Shown here piece by piece: positions 1-7,591 of a DNA stretch of 13,701 bases. The notes below the pieces were generated by a model. The model saw nothing but the letters and a program-made list of their open reading frames with translations. It searched no databases and was not told the origin of the DNA. The stretch is from a virus. Lineage: Duplodnaviria > Heunggongvirae > Uroviricota > Caudoviricetes. The DNA is taken from positions 1 to 13,701 of the IMG/VR virus record IMGVR_UViG_2660238190_000005; one strand, given 5' to 3'. A program made the position numbers and the translations under genes. Within the stretch, counting starts at the first letter, position 1, and every line of letters begins with the position of its first letter.

Positions 1-477
1 ATGTTGCGTAAATTCATCACCGAAAATGACTTAAAAGAAAGTTACGACTATATCTTTATCGATAGCCCCCCAACAATCTCATTATTTACAGATACCGCAC
101 TCCTTGCTTCTGATTATTATCTTACTCCGGTTAAAATTGATCACTACTCGGTGCTTGGAGCAAGCAGTTTAAATAGCGTTATAAGAAATATGCGCACACA
201 TCATGAGAAAGAAATCAAGCAAGTCGGTTACATTTATACAAACACTGATGCTGAAATGACCAATAAAACAAGGGAAATTAAAGAGCAATTCGAAAACCAT
301 ACTCAATTTACAAATTTTTATTTCTTTGAAAATCAATTAACCTACGTGCGTGATTTAATGGTAGGTTATCAAGGGAATATTCCTTCTTGTTATTCAAAGT
401 CACGCCAAGATATAGAAAAGATCTGTAACGAATTTATTAACAGAGTGGCTCACTTGGAAGGTAACACAAATGAATAA
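1..477 (+). CDS. ParA/MinD-family ATPase-like protein, C-terminal portion only (no Walker A visible; either cut by the window edge or an N-terminally truncated fragment)
   Basis: Translation contains YDYIFIDSPPTISLFTDTALLASDYYLTPVKID, which matches the ParA Walker-B/switch region pattern (D-x-IIID-x-PP ... NAL-x-A-D ... IP). Very AT-rich. Stop at 475..477 overlaps the next start. Confidence 0.45.
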   Translation: MLRKFITENDLKESYDYIFIDSPPTISLFTDTALLASDYYLTPVKIDHYSVLGASSLNSVIRNMRTHHEKEIKQVGYIYTNTDAEMTNKTREIKEQFENHTQFTNFYFFENQLTYVRDLMVGYQGNIPSCYSKSRQDIEKICNEFINRVAHLEGNTNE

Positions 478-868
478 ACAATTAATTAAAGCGCTCAATA
501 AAGCTAACAATATGCCCATGACCAAAGAAAACTTCTTAGGCTTGGTAATTATGTTGATTCTTTCAAAAGAGGTTTTTAGATCAAATTTTGATGTTAGTAA
601 ATTTATTAACAAAACCTTCAAAATATCTTTTTTGAATTATGCTGTACGGTCAAGAACTTTGATGTGCGCTAAAATTTGCAAACATATTAATGAATTAAGT
701 GAGAATGACATAAAGATGGCTTATACGCATTTCTTAAACAACATTAACACATTAGACATTATTTTTAATGATGCAAATAAAACAAGCCAAAAATCCACAT
801 CTAAAAGCAAGCATGCTATAAGGAATTTAAATATTTGGATTAATGCAAATAAAAAGGAAGAAGAATAA
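470..868 (+). CDS. hypothetical protein (gene 2 of AT-rich cargo operon)
   Basis: 132-aa ORF; ATG at 470 overlaps the upstream stop by 8 nt; GGAAGG upstream; AT-rich codon usage matching its neighbours; no recognisable domain. Confidence 0.45.
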   Translation: MNKQLIKALNKANNMPMTKENFLGLVIMLILSKEVFRSNFDVSKFINKTFKISFLNYAVRSRTLMCAKICKHINELSENDIKMAYTHFLNNINTLDIIFNDANKTSQKSTSKSKHAIRNLNIWINANKKEEE

Positions 869-1533
869 TGCTCACGCAGGATCCCTTCAACATTGGAAGA
901 GATGTAAATTATTTTAGAGCGGAGGTGCAAAAGCACCTCAGAACCACTGATGAAATAAACAAATCAGTATCAATATTTAGGCAAATAAGTCTTTGTAATA
1001 CAATTTTAAGTCACAATCCTAATCTAAATCACTCTTCTTATATAAAAGGTTTTATATATGATACCTTAAACTCCTTAATTGCCATTATAAAAAAAAGAGA
1101 ACGGTATCTCCAACTGAACTTCCGCTCAATGGTGGAGCATGTGGCCAGAATAAGCCTCAATAAGAACTACAATGGTGGGGATTTTGACCAAACTGTACGT
1201 CGTAGAGACTTTGACTTCTTAAAAGCCCAACAAGTCGATGAAGGCTGGTCTTATTTACATAATGTCTATATCAACGCCTGTTATTATGTTCACTCCTCCC
1301 CCCAAGCGAACCTAAATGTTACATCAACATTTATATCACTTATGGAGGGAGATTGTAATTCAACACAGCATAAAATGGTGAAAAAACTTCATGAGGTAGT
1401 ATCGGCGCTGATGAGAATCATTATAAAGTATTATCATCAGCATATCTCAAACATTTTCTTTAGAAACAAAAAGGATTTAGAGAAAATAATGGGAAAAAGC
1501 CTTTATTCATATTATACCAGCTTAGACAATTAA
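868..1533 (+). CDS. hypothetical protein (gene 3 of AT-rich cargo operon)
   Basis: 221-aa ORF; start overlaps the upstream stop (TAATG); strong RBS AAGGAAGAAG upstream; contains a weak R-x4-H tetrad (RSMVEH); no family recognised. Confidence 0.5.
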   Translation: MLTQDPFNIGRDVNYFRAEVQKHLRTTDEINKSVSIFRQISLCNTILSHNPNLNHSSYIKGFIYDTLNSLIAIIKKRERYLQLNFRSMVEHVARISLNKNYNGGDFDQTVRRRDFDFLKAQQVDEGWSYLHNVYINACYYVHSSPQANLNVTSTFISLMEGDCNSTQHKMVKKLHEVVSALMRIIIKYYHQHISNIFFRNKKDLEKIMGKSLYSYYTSLDN

Positions 1534-1570
1534 TTCTCTCATATTCATTGCGTAGAGCATAAATATCTAT

Positions 1571-1960
1571 CTAACCACCTAAAATGCCAGAAAATCTAGT
1601 TGTATACCGGTGCGAAAATATCTCGCGTTTCATCTGCCACTGCTGCTGAATGCCCTGCCCAGCGAAACAGAGTGTTTCCTTCCCGTCTTTTGCGTTGAGG
1701 TGCTCCAGCACGCTCATTAACTTTTCGCTCCCAGGACCCAGCGCGTTATCGTCGAATAGGTTAGGGCATGCTCTGACTGAAGAAGTCCCCCAGCATTACC
1801 CCGGCTTTCTGATATCGGTGTCCGTCTTTCCATATTGCATCCAGACTCCCCGTTGCTACTGCAATGATATCCCGACTGTCCTGTGTCGGGATGAGCAGCT
1901 TCACCGACGCGTTGTTACAGTAGTACGACTCGTTCAACGCAAAGGGTATCGTGTAAAACC
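1571..1960 (-). pseudogene. umuC-like (Y-family translesion polymerase) C-terminal fragment, disrupted by a stop and frameshift
   Basis: Minus-strand translation gives ...PTQDSRDIIAVATGSLDAIWKDGHRYQKAGVMLGDFFSQSMP*, then in a shifted frame FDDNALGPGSEKLMSVLEHLNAKDGKETLCFAGQGIQQQWQMKREIFSHRYTTRFSGILGG*. This resembles the UmuC/MucB C-terminus as I remember it (HRYQKAGVML...LFDDNA...AGQGIQQQWQMKR...RYTTR). No N-terminal part or umuD is present. Upstream boundary is approximate. Confidence 0.5.
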
Positions 1961-2403
1961 GATGATGACACTGCCGGCAATCAGCACTGACGTCAGCAAA
2001 CGTGAGAAAGAACAGATAAGCCGAACGATTTAGGAAATGTTTGAAGAGACTGATATGTGGATGGTTTCAGTTTAAACGCCTTGAACCGTCATATTACCTA
2101 AGTACAATCCGCTGTGACTGGCAATCATTCAATACTTGCACTATCAAAAGTGCATCAGCCAACCGCAGCACGTCTTGCATACGACCTGTCTGCGGTTTCA
2201 ATCACCTCTCACCACCAGTCCCATCAATAATAATTAAACAGCGCCTAAACAAAATAAATAACAACAAGTCAACAACCTCGACAGGATGCCGATGGGATGA
2301 TGAAGAGATAAGAAAGAATAACTAGTAAAGCCCTAAAACGTCAGCGTTCAGACGCGTTTTTTACTTAACCGGTAACAAATACGTTGTATCATAGCAACAT
2401 AAA

Positions 2404-4353
2404 ATGATTGTTCTAAATCAGATTAACTCCTCACTTTTGTACAATGTCGCTTACAGGTATACCATGAAATCCGAGACGCTAACTGTCCAACAACTTTTTC
2501 AAGACCGCCGACAATACTGTGTTCCATTCTATCAACGTGCCTATGTATGGACTCAGCGAAACCAATGGTCAGCTCTACTGGAGGATATCCTAGAGAAAGC
2601 ACAATCCCGGCTCTCGGGTACAAAACCAACTCCCCATTTCCTTGGTGCAGTTGTACTGGAACCTCAACCAAAAAAAGGATTATTCGGTGTAGATTCCATA
2701 CATATTATTGATGGTCAGCAACGATTGACCACTCTTCAATATGTTCTGGCATCCATCCGATTAGCATTACGTGCAACAGATCTTTCCAACTTAGAGCCTC
2801 TCATTTCGTCTTGCCTGAAAAACTCAAACGAAGACACAATGCGAAATAAAGAAGTAGAGCGCTTCAAACTGTGGCCAACTTTTCGGGATCAAACTCATTT
2901 TATTCAAAGTTTTAATGTTGAAAATATTGACGATATCCGGAATGTATTCTCTGATAGTTTCACGCAGCATGGTACGTTGCGTAAGCATTTTAATCACCCG
3001 CCATCACTAGAAGCATTATGTTTTTTTACTGAAGCCTTTATAAAGTGGATTAAAATAGAAAATCACTCACCACGAGAAAATGCTGTAGCATTAATTGAGG
3101 CTGTCTTGACGGATCTGAAACTAGTAAGCATATTTCTCGAGGCTGAAGATGACGCTCAAATAATTTTTGAAACATTAAATGGCAGAGGTGCGGAACTTCA
3201 TGCCACAGATCTTATTCGCAATTATATTTTTATGTGCGCTGAACATGAAAATATTAATGCTGTTGAATTATATGAGAATGAGTGGAAGATCTTTGAAGAT
3301 ACGTACTGGTCAGAAAGACAACGTCGTGGTCGTATTAATAAACCACGCATGGAGTGGCTAGTGCATGCAACATTGCAATCAGAAAGGCAACGTGAAATCG
3401 ATCTGTCTCGTCTTTACAATGAGTATCGTGATTATGTAAGTAAGGACTTGCCTTCACAACGAGCAGATCTGCAAGTAAAGCGCCTCAAACAATATGCATC
3501 ACAATATAAAGAATTGGTTGGTGGTTTTGGCACAACCCCCATCTCACACTTTGGACATCGCATCGCAGCCTATGATGTGACGACACTTTATCCGCTTGCT
3601 TTGTTCATTTCGATAGCTAACATCGCCGATGATGAGAAAGCAGCCATGTATAATGATCTTGTCTCCTACGTAGTACGAAGAGCCGTATGTGGCCTGACGC
3701 CAAAGAATTACAACAATGTATTTATGAATGTATTGCGGCACTTGTCTAAAACAGAAATTTCCAGTGTTGAGTTACGTAATATCCTCAATAGCTTAAATGG
3801 CGAAGCCTCACGTTGGCCTGGGGACTCAGAATTTCTCAACGCTTGCATCAATGCTCCACTTTATCCTGGCAGGCTCGACGCACCGAAAATGCGCTCAATG
3901 TTAACGGAACTTGAAAGAGAACTTTGTCGCCAAGTGAAGACAGAGAAGCCTGATGTTCCAAATCTTTCTAACCTCGATATCGATCATCTTATGCCTCAAA
4001 GTTGGTATTCCTGTTGGCCTCTCGAAAATGGTCATATGGTGACAAATTCAGATGCTACGGTATTGAACCAAATTGTTCTGTCTGGAACCGATCTTACCCC
4101 AGAACAGCTACTGGTAAGGAAACGGCAACAAGCGATAGCTACGTTGGGAAATCTAACTTTGCTTAACCTTAGCGTAAACCGTTCTGTTCAGAATGCTGTA
4201 TTTCTGAAAAAACGTGATGCTCTCATCGTCCACACCAATCTACGACTGAACATTCCACTTATAGTTAAGGATAAATGGGATGAGGATGAAATCCTGGAGC
4301 GGGGTAAAATGTTGGGGGAAATTGCATTGAAAGTATGGCCAAAACACGATTAA
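2404..4353 (+). CDS. GmrSD-family type IV (modification-dependent) restriction endonuclease: N-terminal DUF262 ParB-like NTPase domain plus C-terminal DUF1524 His-Me finger nuclease domain
   Basis: N-terminus has VPFYQRAYVW and IIDGQQRLTTLQY (the DGQQR motif of DUF262). C-terminus has DIDHLMPQSW ... LGNLTLLNLSVNRSVQN, typical of DUF1524. Long uninterrupted ORF. True start may be the internal ATG at 2464 (MKSETLTVQQL...). Confidence 0.8.
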   Translation: MIVLNQINSSLLYNVAYRYTMKSETLTVQQLFQDRRQYCVPFYQRAYVWTQRNQWSALLEDILEKAQSRLSGTKPTPHFLGAVVLEPQPKKGLFGVDSIHIIDGQQRLTTLQYVLASIRLALRATDLSNLEPLISSCLKNSNEDTMRNKEVERFKLWPTFRDQTHFIQSFNVENIDDIRNVFSDSFTQHGTLRKHFNHPPSLEALCFFTEAFIKWIKIENHSPRENAVALIEAVLTDLKLVSIFLEAEDDAQIIFETLNGRGAELHATDLIRNYIFMCAEHENINAVELYENEWKIFEDTYWSERQRRGRINKPRMEWLVHATLQSERQREIDLSRLYNEYRDYVSKDLPSQRADLQVKRLKQYASQYKELVGGFGTTPISHFGHRIAAYDVTTLYPLALFISIANIADDEKAAMYNDLVSYVVRRAVCGLTPKNYNNVFMNVLRHLSKTEISSVELRNILNSLNGEASRWPGDSEFLNACINAPLYPGRLDAPKMRSMLTELERELCRQVKTEKPDVPNLSNLDIDHLMPQSWYSCWPLENGHMVTNSDATVLNQIVLSGTDLTPEQLLVRKRQQAIATLGNLTLLNLSVNRSVQNAVFLKKRDALIVHTNLRLNIPLIVKDKWDEDEILERGKMLGEIALKVWPKHD

Positions 4354-4374
4354 TGCAATTAATAAAATGATTAT

Positions 4375-4400
4375 AGCGGCCTTACATTAGTAAGGCCGCT
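4375..4400 (+). terminator. Hairpin immediately downstream of the GmrSD gene (candidate intrinsic terminator; weak T-tract)
   Basis: Perfect inverted repeat AGCGGCCTTAC-atta-GTAAGGCCGCT starting 22 bp after the stop codon. Following sequence is A/T-rich but not a clean U-run. Confidence 0.45.
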
Positions 4401-4582
4401 ACTCACTATTAAATCCTTTAATTTGCAACAAGAACAGCAGTGTCAGCCCTAGGTTTCGGACTTTGTACCGCTTATCTTGTCTTCAAAAATCAGCTCGCAT
4501 CCTGCACAGCTCAACGCATTACGTTGTAGATCGGTATTCTGGTCATTTGTTGATACGCGTACATAGCCAATAAGCATGGTAG

Positions 4583-5176
4583 ATCCCCCTGACAAAAGCA
4601 GGAATGATGCCATTTGCTCGTTATTTCTGCATTTTCATAAACGTTGGTTTGGGAGAAGGTGCTCCAGCTATTGGCGTTCCGTTCTTCTGGCCGTCCGCCG
4701 CAATGCCAAATACTGTAATCGACAGTTGGTCCAGTATGGTGTTTTTGAAGTTCAACGGCGCGAAATTCTCTGCCACTGATTACCCTGTGCTGGCGAAAGT
4801 GTTTCCGGCGCTAGCATTACCTGACGCACGGGGTGATTTCATTCGTATCTGGGATGATGGGCGCGGGATTGATGTCGGACGTACCCTACTTTCAGGGCAA
4901 TCACACACAATTATGGATCATGCACACAATATGGAATTGTGGACGGGGGACGGGCTTGCCGCAGGAAGTGCACGGGAAGGAGTAAACCCAGGAATACTGG
5001 CTACATACGGTGACGGGGGAATAGTTAAAACGGACGAACCCGGTCTTAAGGTGCCTTCCTCACTACGAGCTCTTAGCTCTCGTAGTGTTAAACGTTATGG
5101 TGAAATTAGTGGAAATGTAGATACAGAAACCCGTCCACGAAATATTGCATTTAACTTTCTGGTGAGGGCTAAATAA
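4583..5176 (+). pseudogene. Phage tail fiber protein, C-terminal fragment only
   Basis: Translation ...PFFWPSAAMP...FNGAKFSATDYPVLAKVFPALALPDARGDFIRIWDDGRGIDVGRTLLSGQSHTIMDHAHNM...RPRNIAFNFLVRAK matches the conserved C-terminal region of lambda Stf / P2 H-type tail fibers. Frame opens only at 4583, far too short for a full fiber. Followed at 5176 by a 30-codon ORF overlapping by TAATG, possibly a tail-fiber-assembly remnant. Confidence 0.6.
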
Positions 5177-5237
5177 TGATACCTGTTTTTGATGAAAATG
5201 GGCTGGCTACAGTGCCGGGCGATATGCGTTGTTTTTA

Positions 5238-5411
5238 TTATAATGCAGTATCCCCTTCACAACGGTGAGCCACACGCCCACTCTGACGTAACTTGCTTGC
5301 TGACTGCTGAACGCGCTGCCGCGAGTAACCAGCAAAAGCATCCGCAATGTCTCCGGAAGTACACCCCGGATTGGCTTCAATGAATTTCTGAACGTCATTT
5401 AACAGACTCAT
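5238..5411 (-). CDS. small winged-helix/HTH DNA-binding protein (57 aa), below the ORF-track length cutoff
   Basis: ATG 2 nt after the replication-gene stop (TGATCATG). Translation MSLLNDVQKFIEANPGCTSGDIADAFAGYSRQRVQQSASKLRQSGRVAHRCEGDTAL has a classic HTH pattern (SGDIADAFAGYSRQRVQQ...L...G). Preferred over the overlapping 63-aa ORF in another frame. Confidence 0.4.
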   Translation of the reverse strand: MSLLNDVQKFIEANPGCTSGDIADAFAGYSRQRVQQSASKLRQSGRVAHRCEGDTAL

Positions 5412-5413
5412 GA

Positions 5414-6355
5414 TCACCCCCTGAATCCTGCCGGGATCTGGCTGTAGTCCACGTTGTCGTAACTGGCTTTGAAGTACGGGTCTTCACGTTTTTCTGTGTG
5501 CGTGCTGACGGACGGCGATAAGCGCAGGGAAAGCTCATCCCATTTTTCCCGCAACTTCGACGGGCTGAGCACGTTACGGCACCAGAACGGATCGCGGCTG
5601 ACGCGGCTGTACATCTCGCAGATTTGTTTGTGAGTACGACCATCCTGCACACACATCAGGCGAATTTCGTTTGCCCAGGCTGTCCAGTTAGGTTCTTTGG
5701 GACGAACCACCTCGCCGTCACATTCGGCGGCCTGCTCGTACAGGGCGATGATTTTTTTCCAGAGCCACTGTGCGCAGGTCAAATCATCCTGCGTTCCCCA
5801 CTGGCGCTTTTTAGAGCTGAATACAACCGCATCAGGATGACGAGTTAAAAAATCCTGTTCATCCTTCTTCATGTCCGGTTGCGAAGCGTCCGGACGAGAA
5901 GTTTTTTTATCTGACGGATCATGTTTTGATTTTACTGACGGATCCCCGCCAGATTCTGACGGGTGAAAACCCGCTTTTTTGCCAGATTTCGACGCATCAA
6001 ATTTTGACGGGTCAGATTTTGATGCGTCAGATTTTGACGGGTCAGAATCTGACAGTTGAGAAAATGCCGCTGCCTGAAGCTTCGCAACGTTAAGCTGATA
6101 AACATTCGACGCATTGCGGTTACCCTGGCGACGCGCCTTACGCGTTAACCAGCCTTCTGCTTCCAGCCGTGCGATAGCCGTTCTGACGGTACTCATCCCC
6201 GCGCCAATCTGGCGGGCAATGGTTTCAATTGATGGCCAGCACACACCTTCGTCATTACTGAAATCAGCCAGGCGGGCCATAATTGCCACGCTGGATAACT
6301 TCATGCCTGACGCAGCGCAACCATCCCATACATAGCCGGTTAATTTAGTGCTCAT
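5414..6355 (-). CDS. Phage replication initiation protein (O-like; N-terminal winged-helix DNA-binding domain, repeat-containing linker, C-terminal domain)
   Basis: N-terminus ...VAIMARLADFSNDEGVCWPSIETIARQIGAGMSTVRTAIARLEAEGWL is HTH-like. Internal pentapeptide repeats (DPSKS/DASKS) are encoded by tandem DNA repeats. Sits last in the cro-cII-O-type operon. Start overlaps the upstream gene. Confidence 0.65.
   Translation of the reverse strand: MSTKLTGYVWDGCAASGMKLSSVAIMARLADFSNDEGVCWPSIETIARQIGAGMSTVRTAIARLEAEGWLTRKARRQGNRNASNVYQLNVAKLQAAAFSQLSDSDPSKSDASKSDPSKFDASKSGKKAGFHPSESGGDPSVKSKHDPSDKKTSRPDASQPDMKKDEQDFLTRHPDAVVFSSKKRQWGTQDDLTCAQWLWKKIIALYEQAAECDGEVVRPKEPNWTAWANEIRLMCVQDGRTHKQICEMYSRVSRDPFWCRNVLSPSKLREKWDELSLRLSPSVSTHTEKREDPYFKASYDNVDYSQIPAGFRG
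5949..6057. repeat. Iteron-like 15-bp tandem repeats (consensus about TCAGATTTTGACGGG) inside the replication gene; candidate origin of replication
   Basis: Copies at 5949, 5982, 5998, 6013, 6028 and 6043, with further CTGACGG motifs at 5913 and 5936 and an adjacent T-rich stretch. Layout parallels iterons inside lambda O. Confidence 0.5.
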
Positions 6356-6364
6356 GACCGACCT

Positions 6365-6703
6365 CTATTTCCCTGAATTTACGACGAAACTGTTCGAGCG
6401 GGCTGAAGCACTCATGCTCATAGCCTTCGCGGAGGTAGATAACCCGTTGTGTTTCCGGCTCCCAACGAATGACTCTGACGGGTACTCCGTAGTGATCTTT
6501 GAACCAGCGGTTAACTTGTCGCAAAGGACTGTCTCCTTCTGCCGGTTGAAATCACCCACAGCCCACTCTGCAAAGCTGTGGGTTACAATTTCCCTGTCAC
6601 CTGGTACATTCACTGCATAGCAATATTCCACCTTCGCTTTTCCACCCGGTACAGGAAGCGCAATCAGTTGCGAGCGACGGTAGTGTGTTATTAAACTGTT
6701 CAT
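6365..6703 (-). CDS. hypothetical phage protein, probably frameshifted (N-terminal part in this frame, more protein-like C-terminal part in another frame ending at 6345)
   Basis: ATG at 6703 overlaps the upstream stop (ATGA). From about 6550 the listed frame turns Ser-rich and low-complexity, while an alternative frame reads ...[66 protein letters not shown] with its stop overlapping the replication-gene start. Confidence 0.4.
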
Positions 6704-7269
6704 GCGTTAGTTTCTCCACAACCAGAAGCAATCGACGCCACGACGCCCGGAGCTGCACACTCGCGGGCGTCATTACTTTCTGAAATGCAAAAAATTTTGT
6801 AAACAAGTGCTGCATGCTCCTGCAGCTTCGAAATTGAGAGATACAGCTCGTCGTTAATTGCTGTCTTCTCATGCGGTTCCACTACACCGTCTTCGATTGC
6901 TGAACGAATCTGTTTTGAATAACTGCCGATCTGTTCAATGACTTCCAGCAGACGCTGGTTAATATCGGCGTTGTCCACATCCTCGACGTCAGGAAGAGAC
7001 ACAAAGACGCCATTTGCAGACTGCGCCACAGCATCAGCAATGAAGTGAGTGCCACCAGCACGCTGTAAAACCATTGCCCATCCCAGCGGGAAAATCTGAT
7101 CGCCATCTGCACGAAGGCGGTTGAATAAAGCGTTTTCTGTTACATCGAGCCAGTCAGCCGCTTCAGCGTAACCACCCGGCAACGCCGCGATAGTTTTTCT
7201 GACAGCTTTCACGTACCACTCAGGCTGTTTTTCTATTTTCCAGTGATGCTTACCCACGATTAGCCTCAT
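6700..7269 (-). CDS. CII-like / YdaT-like phage regulatory protein (189 aa)
   Basis: Sits immediately downstream of the cro-like gene, in the cII position. Family assignment is from position and vague similarity only. GTG at 7255..7257 is an alternative start. Confidence 0.4.
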
Positions 7270-7300
7270 CGTTCTGTGGTTAAAAATTGAAAGTGTTCTG

Positions 7301-7501
7301 CTAATCTTTCGGATAGATATCCGGTCTTAAGTCAGATTTCGTAATTGCACCTGACGTGCATTGCTCAAGTTTTTTAGCCAGCACAAAACTGGCTTTTTTA
7401 TAGCCATTGAAAACCAGCCGTAAGTAGCCAGGTGTTGAGCCAACTTTTCCGGCCAACTCGCCCTGCTGTTCTTTGGTTAAAGAGTCCCAATACGATTTCA
7501 T
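7301..7501 (-). CDS. Cro-like HTH regulator (YdaS/Cro family, 66 aa)
   Basis: Translation MKSYWDSLTKEQQGELAGKVGSTPGYLRLVFNGYKKASFVLAKKLEQCTSGAITKSDLRPDIYPKD has an HTH and the LRPD motif typical of Cro/YdaS-like proteins. GGAGG lies 10 nt upstream of the ATG. Divergent from the repressor gene. The longer 167-aa ORF-track version is rejected. Confidence 0.65.
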   Translation of the reverse strand: MKSYWDSLTKEQQGELAGKVGSTPGYLRLVFNGYKKASFVLAKKLEQCTSGAITKSDLRPDIYPKD

Positions 7502-7591
7502 ACGATATGTACCTCCGGTGTACATATTACATGATTGAAATGAACCTTCAAGATACTTGTACCTTAACGGTACAAGGGTTTTAATTTCGTT
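7502..7591. promoter_or_regulatory. Divergent repressor/cro operator-promoter region (OR-like) with GTAC-core palindromes
   Basis: Palindromes ATGTAC-ctccggt-GTACAT (7507..7525) and CTTGTACC-ttaac-GGTACAAG (7556..7576). On the cro-sense strand, TTGAAG, a 16-bp spacer and TAATAT form a candidate -35/-10. Confidence 0.5.

Follow-up and report, generated by a model that had tools for sequence, protein, structure and literature searches.

A prophage-borne ParA-type ATPase operon of Escherichia coli as a probable member of the RemAIN family of anti-phage systems

Architecture of the operon

The window analysed here, the complete stretch of 13,701 nucleotides at positions 1 to 13,701 of the virus record IMGVR_UViG_2660238190_000005 (Caudoviricetes), is a segment of an Escherichia coli chromosome. 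Read from its right end, it contains proA, followed by tRNA-Thr(CGT), a tyrosine integrase gene and a decayed lambdoid prophage. The opposite end begins with three closely coupled genes on the same strand, which code for an ATPase, a small protein and a predicted nuclease of ca. 220 residues, in this order (Table 1). We conclude with high confidence that this operon is an E. coli representative of the RemAIN family, a three-protein anti-phage and prophage-competition system carried by prophages.

Genes 1 and 2 are joined by ATGAATAA at 470–477, within which the ATG of gene 2 (470–472) and the TAA of gene 1 (475–477) produce an overlap of 8 nucleotides. The junction between genes 2 and 3 consists of TAATG at 866–870 (gene 2 TAA 866–868, gene 3 ATG 868–870; overlap of one nucleotide). 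The GC content is 0.29–0.36 over positions 1–1600 compared with 0.40–0.60 in the remaining window. An earlier interpretation based on the letters of the window without database searches (the sequence-only reading) had described three start/stop-overlapping open reading frames (ORFs) of contrasting AT-rich composition and regarded them as a single horizontally acquired, translationally coupled operon beginning with a ParA/MinD-type ATPase gene; all of this stands according to the ORF list and the sequence itself. Its statement that gene 1 encodes only the Walker-B/C-terminal half of a ParA protein is an artefact of the window edge. Gene 1 seemingly lacks a Walker A motif because the window begins inside the gene and leaves the 5′ 369 bp of remA outside, and the inspection of the upstream DNA, which had been suggested as a check, revealed a full-length gene with the Walker A motif NMKGGVGKTT in complete E. 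coli genomes. In strain BS74R-D (locus L001) the gene extends from 14632 to 15477 and codes for 281 residues including this intact deviant Walker A motif. Promoter and terminator scans around the E. coli operon copy gave no signal above that of shuffled sequences.

Relationship to Salmonella RemAIN

A homologous gene trio was mapped in the Gifsy-1 immunity region of Salmonella Typhimurium 14028s by Kurasz et al. 2023 and consists of STM14_3218 (840 bp, ParA-like), STM14_3219 and STM14_3220 (663 bp), with O, P, a cII-like gene, the repressor gene and recE as reported neighbours (PMC9879122). These genes were needed for the activation of RtcR in the SOS response (50-fold effect). The RtcR signal, RNA ending in a 2′,3′-cyclic phosphate, was abolished by their deletion, the Gifsy titres increased 2–4 fold in the deletion strain, and mitomycin C left STM14_3217–3220 uninduced with the flanking lytic genes up more than 32-fold (PMC9879122). 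No function was assigned to STM14_3219 and STM14_3220 in that study. A later paper equates remAIN with STM14_3218–3220 and designates the products as the ATPase RemA, the immunity protein RemI and the HEPN anticodon nuclease RemN (PMC13043305). RemAIN is credited to Sargen & Helaine 2024 as an anti-phage, anticodon-nuclease system (as cited in PMC13043305, PMC12626290 and PMC13492144), and the last of these states that it prevents co-resident prophages from being induced in intramacrophage persisters (PMC13492144). Phage defence and tRNA cleavage have both been demonstrated in Salmonella. The operon of the window is thus a further homolog of an already described system. The term “uncharacterised system” in the sequence-only reading has to be abandoned, as the Salmonella homolog was mapped in 2023 and named in 2024, and the defence-type function suggested there is in line with the demonstrated role of this homolog.

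For comparison, a Salmonella lambdoid prophage (L071) was taken to stand in for Gifsy-1 of strain 14028s on the basis of gene lengths, neighbours and a HepS-like gene. In L071, a cI-type repressor gene is followed by a ParA-like gene of 840 bp, a small gene and a gene of 663 bp, which corresponds to the lengths and neighbours of STM14_3218–3220. The E. coli proteins match those of L071 over their full length, with identities of 65% for the ATPase (E 1e-141), 32% for the immunity protein (E 8e-22) and 49% for the nuclease (E 6e-88). Since all three proteins align end to end and the 8-nucleotide overlap is shared, the window carries a diverged RemAIN homolog. The assignment is based on the homology of the three proteins, the three-gene synteny, the ATPase motifs, the HEPN-like signature and the lysogeny slots described below.

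Two side observations concern the Salmonella genes. STM14_3219 is given as 309 bp in the literature; its annotated start lies probably too far downstream, because the family alignment supports a gene of 387 bp (L071 7615–8001) that overlaps the ATPase gene by 8 nucleotides as in E. coli. Moreover, the minus strand of L071 (2581–3213) encodes a 210-residue protein without a Pfam match whose sequence R100-N-K-Y-A-H105 is the motif reported for HepS/STM14_3211 (PMC13043305). The L071 prophage region is accordingly predicted to carry two HEPN nuclease defences, RemAIN and a HepS-like protein.

Distribution and synteny of the module

Of 5,426 complete E. coli genomes, 52 contain the same DNA at an identity of at least 99%, without exception in the chromosome, and in 50 of these 52 carriers all three frames are intact and the overlaps kept. 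Gene 3 forms ca. 30 close clusters in Enterobacterales and 102 representatives at 50% clustering of 1.84 billion proteins, nearly all of them stand-alone proteins of ca. 220 residues. For gene 2, 328 clusters were obtained, mainly from gut Firmicutes and Caudoviricetes assemblies.

A set of 58 loci, collected from complete genomes, GTDB species representatives (only two loci), metagenomes and IMG/VR, was scanned with profile hidden Markov models (HMMs). In 55 of them the ATPase gene, gene 2 and gene 3 follow each other closely, in the same order and on the same strand; the exceptions comprise two loci without upstream DNA and one truncated copy. Conserved co-occurrence, whose absence the sequence-only reading had named beforehand as a refutation, is therefore found in Enterobacterales, Halomonadaceae and gut Firmicutes prophages, and the gene order persists even where gene 3 is only ca. 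20% identical to the window copy. As the co-occurrence is kept in more than 50 independent loci, the three genes constitute a unit that is not assembled by chance.

Among isolated phages, tblastn with the E. coli and Megamonas versions of gene 3 gave no match, which partly reflects a limit of sensitivity, as the profile HMMs detected the module in the phages Javan1 and PLg-TB25. In Streptococcus phage Javan1 (MK448665; L076 4399–4740) an unannotated ORF of 113 residues is a remI homolog (E 1e-29); it is located between a “partitioning protein” and a hypothetical protein and completes the module in this phage. In Lactococcus phage PLg-TB25 (KX833905; L077 3492–5489) a ParA homolog and a remI homolog (E 1e-10) are accompanied, in the same gene order, by a protein of 251 residues which is missed by the RemN profile, yet keeps the motifs R-S-A-I-E-S and Y-x3-S-x3-H. 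Either this third protein is a highly diverged RemN, or the effector has been exchanged.

The ATPase RemA

RemA matches the Pfam families AAA_31 (8e-38) and CbiA (7e-17). Its nearest solved structure is that of Helicobacter pylori Soj (pdb-code: 6iub; 1.5e-18), chromosomal Soj proteins being the closest solved relatives. The Walker A, A′ and B motifs, represented by Lys12, Lys17 and Thr18, by Asp40 and Asp42, and by Asp144, are conserved to at least 95% among 43 ATPases of the module. These ATPases form a clade of their own with identities of 36–63% to E. coli RemA. The best NCBIfam matches, ParA_partition and PrgP, remain far under their cut-offs, and the corresponding PHROG is labelled “ParA-like partition protein”.

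RemN and RemI

The R-x4-H motif of RemN, R86-S-M-V-E-H91 (nucleotides 1123–1140), had been noticed in the sequence-only reading but termed weak. The motif is real, the attribute is not appropriate: 29 close relatives from Enterobacterales all have R86, S87, E90, H91, H131 and H142, and in this branch the motif is the strictly conserved core of a HEPN-like nuclease. In distant family members (n = 80–87), R86, E90, Y134 and H142 are conserved to 100%, S87 to 98%, C138 to 92%, and D65 and R94 to at least 91%. Position 91 is occupied by Asn in 77% of 87 family representatives, essentially those of the Firmicutes prophage branch. The segment R86-S87-M-V-E90-H91 resides in the C-terminal half of the helix 78–96 ahead of a disordered loop, and D65 is part of the preceding helix. 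An equivalent arrangement of helices, loop and motif has been described for HEPN domains, among which AF0298-like and AbiV proteins also lack the motif histidine and apparently use an alternative one (PMC3710099). Due to the spacing of i, i+4 and i+8, the conserved stripes 86/90/94 and 134/138/142 are each expected on one helix face. Judged by their sequence positions, R86/E90/R94 and Y134/C138/H142 from two helices may form a candidate non-canonical active site.

Several results weigh against a HEPN relationship. Foldseek of RemN against the PDB gave nothing significant, a profile built from the gene 3 alignment found zero matches among PDB sequences at E ≤ 10, and neither a consistent Pfam family nor a match to any Pfam HEPN model was obtained for 29 close and 80 distant members (E ≤ 1–10). 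On our own evidence, the modelled helix arrangement included, the assignment of RemN to the HEPN superfamily is thus considered as probable but not proven. The conservation pattern also permits a more far-reaching reading, according to which RemN has a non-canonical active site or the Firmicutes branch does not cleave RNA at all, while a ParA-type ATPase serves as sensing/release switch of an immune nuclease; this combination we regard as rather unlikely.

RemI is all-helical. A fold search with gene 2 provided no meaningful match, and there is no match to a ribbon-helix-helix, helix-turn-helix or ParB fold or family. Scans of genes 2 and 3 against Pfam, NCBIfam, PADLOC and PHROGs retrieved only PHROG families of unknown function. 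Matches of genes 2/3 to PD-T4-2_B (E 0.0027) and Pns11_12 in these library scans are weak and were judged as noise.

Genomic positions and the E. coli island

The positions of the trio in the various elements (Table 1) are standard sites of accessory and exclusion genes expressed in the lysogen. In L071, no terminator is found between the cI-type repressor gene and the trio, and a strong terminator follows 72 nucleotides past gene 3. Two further neighbourhoods were observed. In a metagenome contig of Anaerostipes hadrus (L064 11335–13370) the module is followed by a gene for an AAA_15/AAA_21/SMC_N ATPase and a gene for a protein of 250 residues, which together look like another defence pair; sister Anaerostipes contigs carry unrelated genes at this spot. 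In Yersinia enterocolitica (L074 8942–16669) the module adjoins a gene for a protein of 2,773 residues with LPD1, LPD5, LPD38 and MuF_C domains, which is of polymorphic-toxin or conjugative-element type, and a gene with a deaminase C-terminal domain is found nearby, so that this too is a conflict-system neighbourhood.

Table 1. Features of the window and of the flanking E. coli DNA, and positions of the trio in other elements (window coordinates unless a locus is named)
Feature	Position	Strand	Description
Gene 1, 3′ part of remA homolog	1–477	+	C-terminal 158 residues of a 281-residue ParA/Soj-type deviant Walker-A ATPase
Gene 2, remI homolog	470–868	+	132 residues, all-helical; counterpart of the Salmonella RemAIN immunity protein
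Gene 3, remN homolog	868–1533	+	221-residue HEPN-like helical protein; predicted anticodon/tRNA endoribonuclease effector
RemN signature	1123–1293	+	R86-S87-x-x-E90-H91 (1123–1140) and Y134-x3-C138-x3-H142 (1267–1293)
umuC/DUF4113 remnant and dinI fragment	1571–2033		umuC frameshifted, minus strand; RefSeq annotation
GmrSD/DUF262 type IV restriction gene	2404 (RefSeq start 2464)–4353	+	Intact; Pfam GmrSD_N/C; PADLOC mREase_IV E=0
Serine invertase N-terminal remnant	4449–5176	−	Abuts tail-fibre gene remnants
tRNA-Thr(CGT)	12258–12333		Beside integrase gene
SOS-response peptidase fragment	L001 14265–14404		Upstream of the operon
Salmonella lambdoid prophage (L071)			Trio 58 bp after cI-type repressor gene, same strand; lambda rexAB slot
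Megamonas prophages			Trio one ORF past the repressor and ImmA protease genes and two ORFs ahead of the integrase gene, all on one strand
Streptococcus phage Javan1			Trio in the same order as in the window, between the repressor and integrase genes
C. difficile prophages			Trio past holin/endolysin genes
Gut siphoviruses			Trio between late regulator gene and terS
E. coli and Vreelandella			Trio adjoining int/att
Anaerostipes			Trio in variable chromosomal island; once directly before AAA_15/AAA_21 pair

In E. coli, an exact direct repeat of 44 nucleotides from the 3′ part of tRNA-Thr(CGT) is present at 13840–13883 and 29965–30008 of L001, the latter being identical with window positions 12258–12301. 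The island, which comprises ca. 16.2 kb in BS74R-D, is therefore bounded by attachment-site (att) repeats, and the distal copy lies 748 bp upstream of remA. The operon is the outermost cargo of this island at the end opposite the integrase. Its prophage/island location is documented by the att repeats, the integrase and phage genes; no repressor gene adjoins it, and the GmrSD gene is 0.9 kb away. The sequence-only reading had rightly recognized this setting as a tRNA-associated mobile element with a umuC remnant and a type IV restriction gene adjoining the operon. The SOS-related remnants that flank the operon are what is left of another element or of earlier cargo, and the invertase and tail-fibre remnants represent a decayed tail-fibre inversion switch, into which an ISCro1 element (IS66 family) is inserted in BS74R-D (L001 20082–22697) that is absent from the window. 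The block of remAIN, umuC remnant, dinI remnant and GmrSD is also found in E. coli p10A (L070) with another upstream integrase and may travel as a unit. Between 9000 and 9600 the window has a GC content of 0.50–0.54 and ORFs overlapping on both strands, where RefSeq annotates only a “frameshifted hypothetical protein”; an Rfam scan of this segment gave no match.

The state of the island raises the question whether the operon is an inert relic, i.e. a RemAIN-derived cassette that is silent or non-functional in a degraded thrW prophage remnant. The surrounding element is indeed heavily decayed, with umuC, dinI, the SOS peptidase, the invertase and the tail fibres as pseudogenes, and the neighbouring repressor gene has been lost. 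Disrupted copies of the module also exist: an insertion sequence of type IS3 truncates the nuclease gene of E. coli p10A and p10B ahead of Y134/H142 and leaves the remaining two genes intact, an IS1 interrupts the ATPase gene in Dickeya, where genes 2 and 3 are undamaged, and the ATPase gene is frameshifted in Erwinia. However, frames and overlaps are intact in nearly all E. coli carriers, as specified above, and the intact GmrSD gene suggests that defence cargo was retained during the decay of the phage genes. Because the copies are at least 99% identical, the intact frames reflect recent spread as much as purifying selection. On balance, we consider the relic explanation as improbable.

Proposed mechanism and alternative explanations

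By analogy with the Salmonella system we infer that the E. coli copy of RemAIN is expressed and active. Based on the Gifsy-1 prototype we propose the following scenario: The operon would be made in the lysogen along with the repressor gene, and RemI would keep RemN inactive. Lytic growth of an incoming phage or of a co-resident prophage would then lead to the activation of RemN, which would cut tRNA anticodon loops, leaving 2′,3′-cyclic-phosphate ends and bringing translation and phage production to a halt. For RemA, a role as nucleotide-dependent sensor or switch acting on RemI–RemN is conceivable, since its ATPase motifs are strongly conserved; we suggest that ATP-dependent dimerisation might free RemN. 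A model of an effector that is tethered to the nucleoid and set free when the host DNA is damaged is a speculation. The decay patterns mentioned above fit RemI, and not RemA, as the essential antidote, although the events are few and polarity effects are possible.

The same patterns bear on the view that the operon is primarily an addiction (toxin-antitoxin) module which stabilises the island and uses the ParA-like ATPase as antitoxin. Such a function was predicted in the literature for pairs of ParA/Soj ATPases and HEPN proteins of the MAE_18760 family (PMC3710099), and the architecture of a toxin-like effector with an immunity protein would fit. However, the operon consists of three genes and not two, the product of the middle gene is designated as immunity protein (PMC13043305), and gene 3 has no match to any Pfam HEPN family model. 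Since the Erwinia and Dickeya copies with a broken ATPase gene keep genes 2 and 3 intact, an essential antitoxin function of the ATPase is hard to reconcile with the data, and we regard this explanation as very improbable.

Least credible of all is the view that the operon serves partition or maintenance, as a type Ib-like cassette by which the prophage or island is stabilised in its excised circular form: the ATPase is a genuine relative of ParA/Soj with partition labels in NCBIfam and PHROG, and the cassette often adjoins int/att, but its hosts are integrating prophages, no iterated repeats surround the operon (only short two-copy matches at L001 13700–16700), gene 2 lacks a match to ribbon-helix-helix, helix-turn-helix or ParB proteins and to Pfam or NCBIfam families, and the Salmonella homolog has a demonstrated defence and nuclease role. 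A standard parA-parB cassette upstream of the operon, which the sequence-only reading had named as the finding that would speak against it, was not found. A search of 72,556 plasmid records for gene 3, with the E. coli or Megamonas protein as query, detected it in no true plasmid, the matches being a circular lambdoid phage genome of 44.6 kb and a Fusobacterium replicon of 2.1 Mb. The ParA clade occurs at E ≤ 1e-20 in only five plasmid records, of which four are this circular phage genome or mislabelled replicons of more than 2 Mb.

Significance

In ca. 1% of the complete genomes of E. coli, and likewise in numerous prophages of Enterobacterales and gut Firmicutes, the cassette is annotated as “ParA family protein” plus two hypothetical proteins. 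Since Pfam, NCBIfam and PADLOC v2 have no model for it, it is overlooked by defence censuses and miscounted by partition-gene censuses. Two large defence-discovery papers contained no mention of a ParA-type system, and a search of papers for accession numbers gave no match. RemAIN-type modules constitute widespread prophage cargo well beyond Salmonella and reside in RexAB-type slots. If active, the E. coli copy would be a prophage-encoded source of cyclic-phosphate tRNA fragments and possibly an activator of Rtc RNA repair. The divergent active-site signature of RemN poses a concrete question on the nuclease mechanism, and a ParA-type switch for sensing and release of an immune nuclease would, if true, give this family of ATPases a new function. 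Contributed here are the breadth of the family, its absence from the libraries, the repressor/integrase slots and the conservation pattern of RemN, some of which may already be contained in the 2024 primary report.

Comparison with known systems

The window operon shares with RemAIN of Gifsy-1 the three genes, their order, the 8-nucleotide overlap, full-length homology, prophage residence, AT-richness and the motif R-S-M-[VI]-E-H. It differs in its location, as the Gifsy-1 trio directly follows the repressor gene whereas the E. coli copy adjoins GmrSD at the distal end of a decayed thrW prophage, in the strong divergence of the immunity protein, and in that activity has been demonstrated for the Salmonella system.

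Dyads of ParA/Soj ATPases and HEPN proteins (MAE_18760) were predicted by Anantharaman et al. 2013 as toxin-antitoxin systems with the ATPase as antitoxin (PMC3710099). They resemble RemAIN in that a gene for a ParA/Soj-type SIMIBI ATPase is located immediately upstream of a gene for a HEPN-type RNase in conflict contexts. In RemAIN loci, however, a conserved third gene is always inserted between the two. Gene 3 is also set apart from the MAE_18760 family by the lack of a Pfam HEPN match in 109 members, a distinction that refers to the Pfam models; PF18737 is the model which we take to cover MAE_18760.

Like RexAB of phage lambda, the trio of Salmonella directly follows the repressor gene in the same orientation, with analogous placements in Megamonas and Javan1; expression in the lysogen and the exclusion of other phages are further common features. 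Nevertheless, there is no relationship in sequence or fold, and RexAB acts via a membrane ion channel and not as an RNase. ParABS and type Ib partition systems are similar in RemA itself, which has the deviant Walker A (KGGVGKT), A′ and B motifs and the size of type Ib ParA proteins; in contrast to them, no ParB/ParG-like partner, centromere repeats or plasmid residence were found for the RemAIN module.

PrrC/RloC and HepS also use HEPN-type cleavage of tRNA anticodon loops for abortive infection. PrrC/RloC likewise couple a nucleoside triphosphatase to the nuclease, but as an ATP-binding cassette (ABC)-type ATPase that is fused to it, the nuclease being restrained by a restriction enzyme. HepS, a solo HEPN protein of Gifsy-1 described in 2026, acts alone and is triggered by the tail-tip protein J (PMC13043305). 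RemAIN, in contrast, combines its nuclease with a ParA-type ATPase that is a protein of its own and with an immunity protein dedicated to this role.

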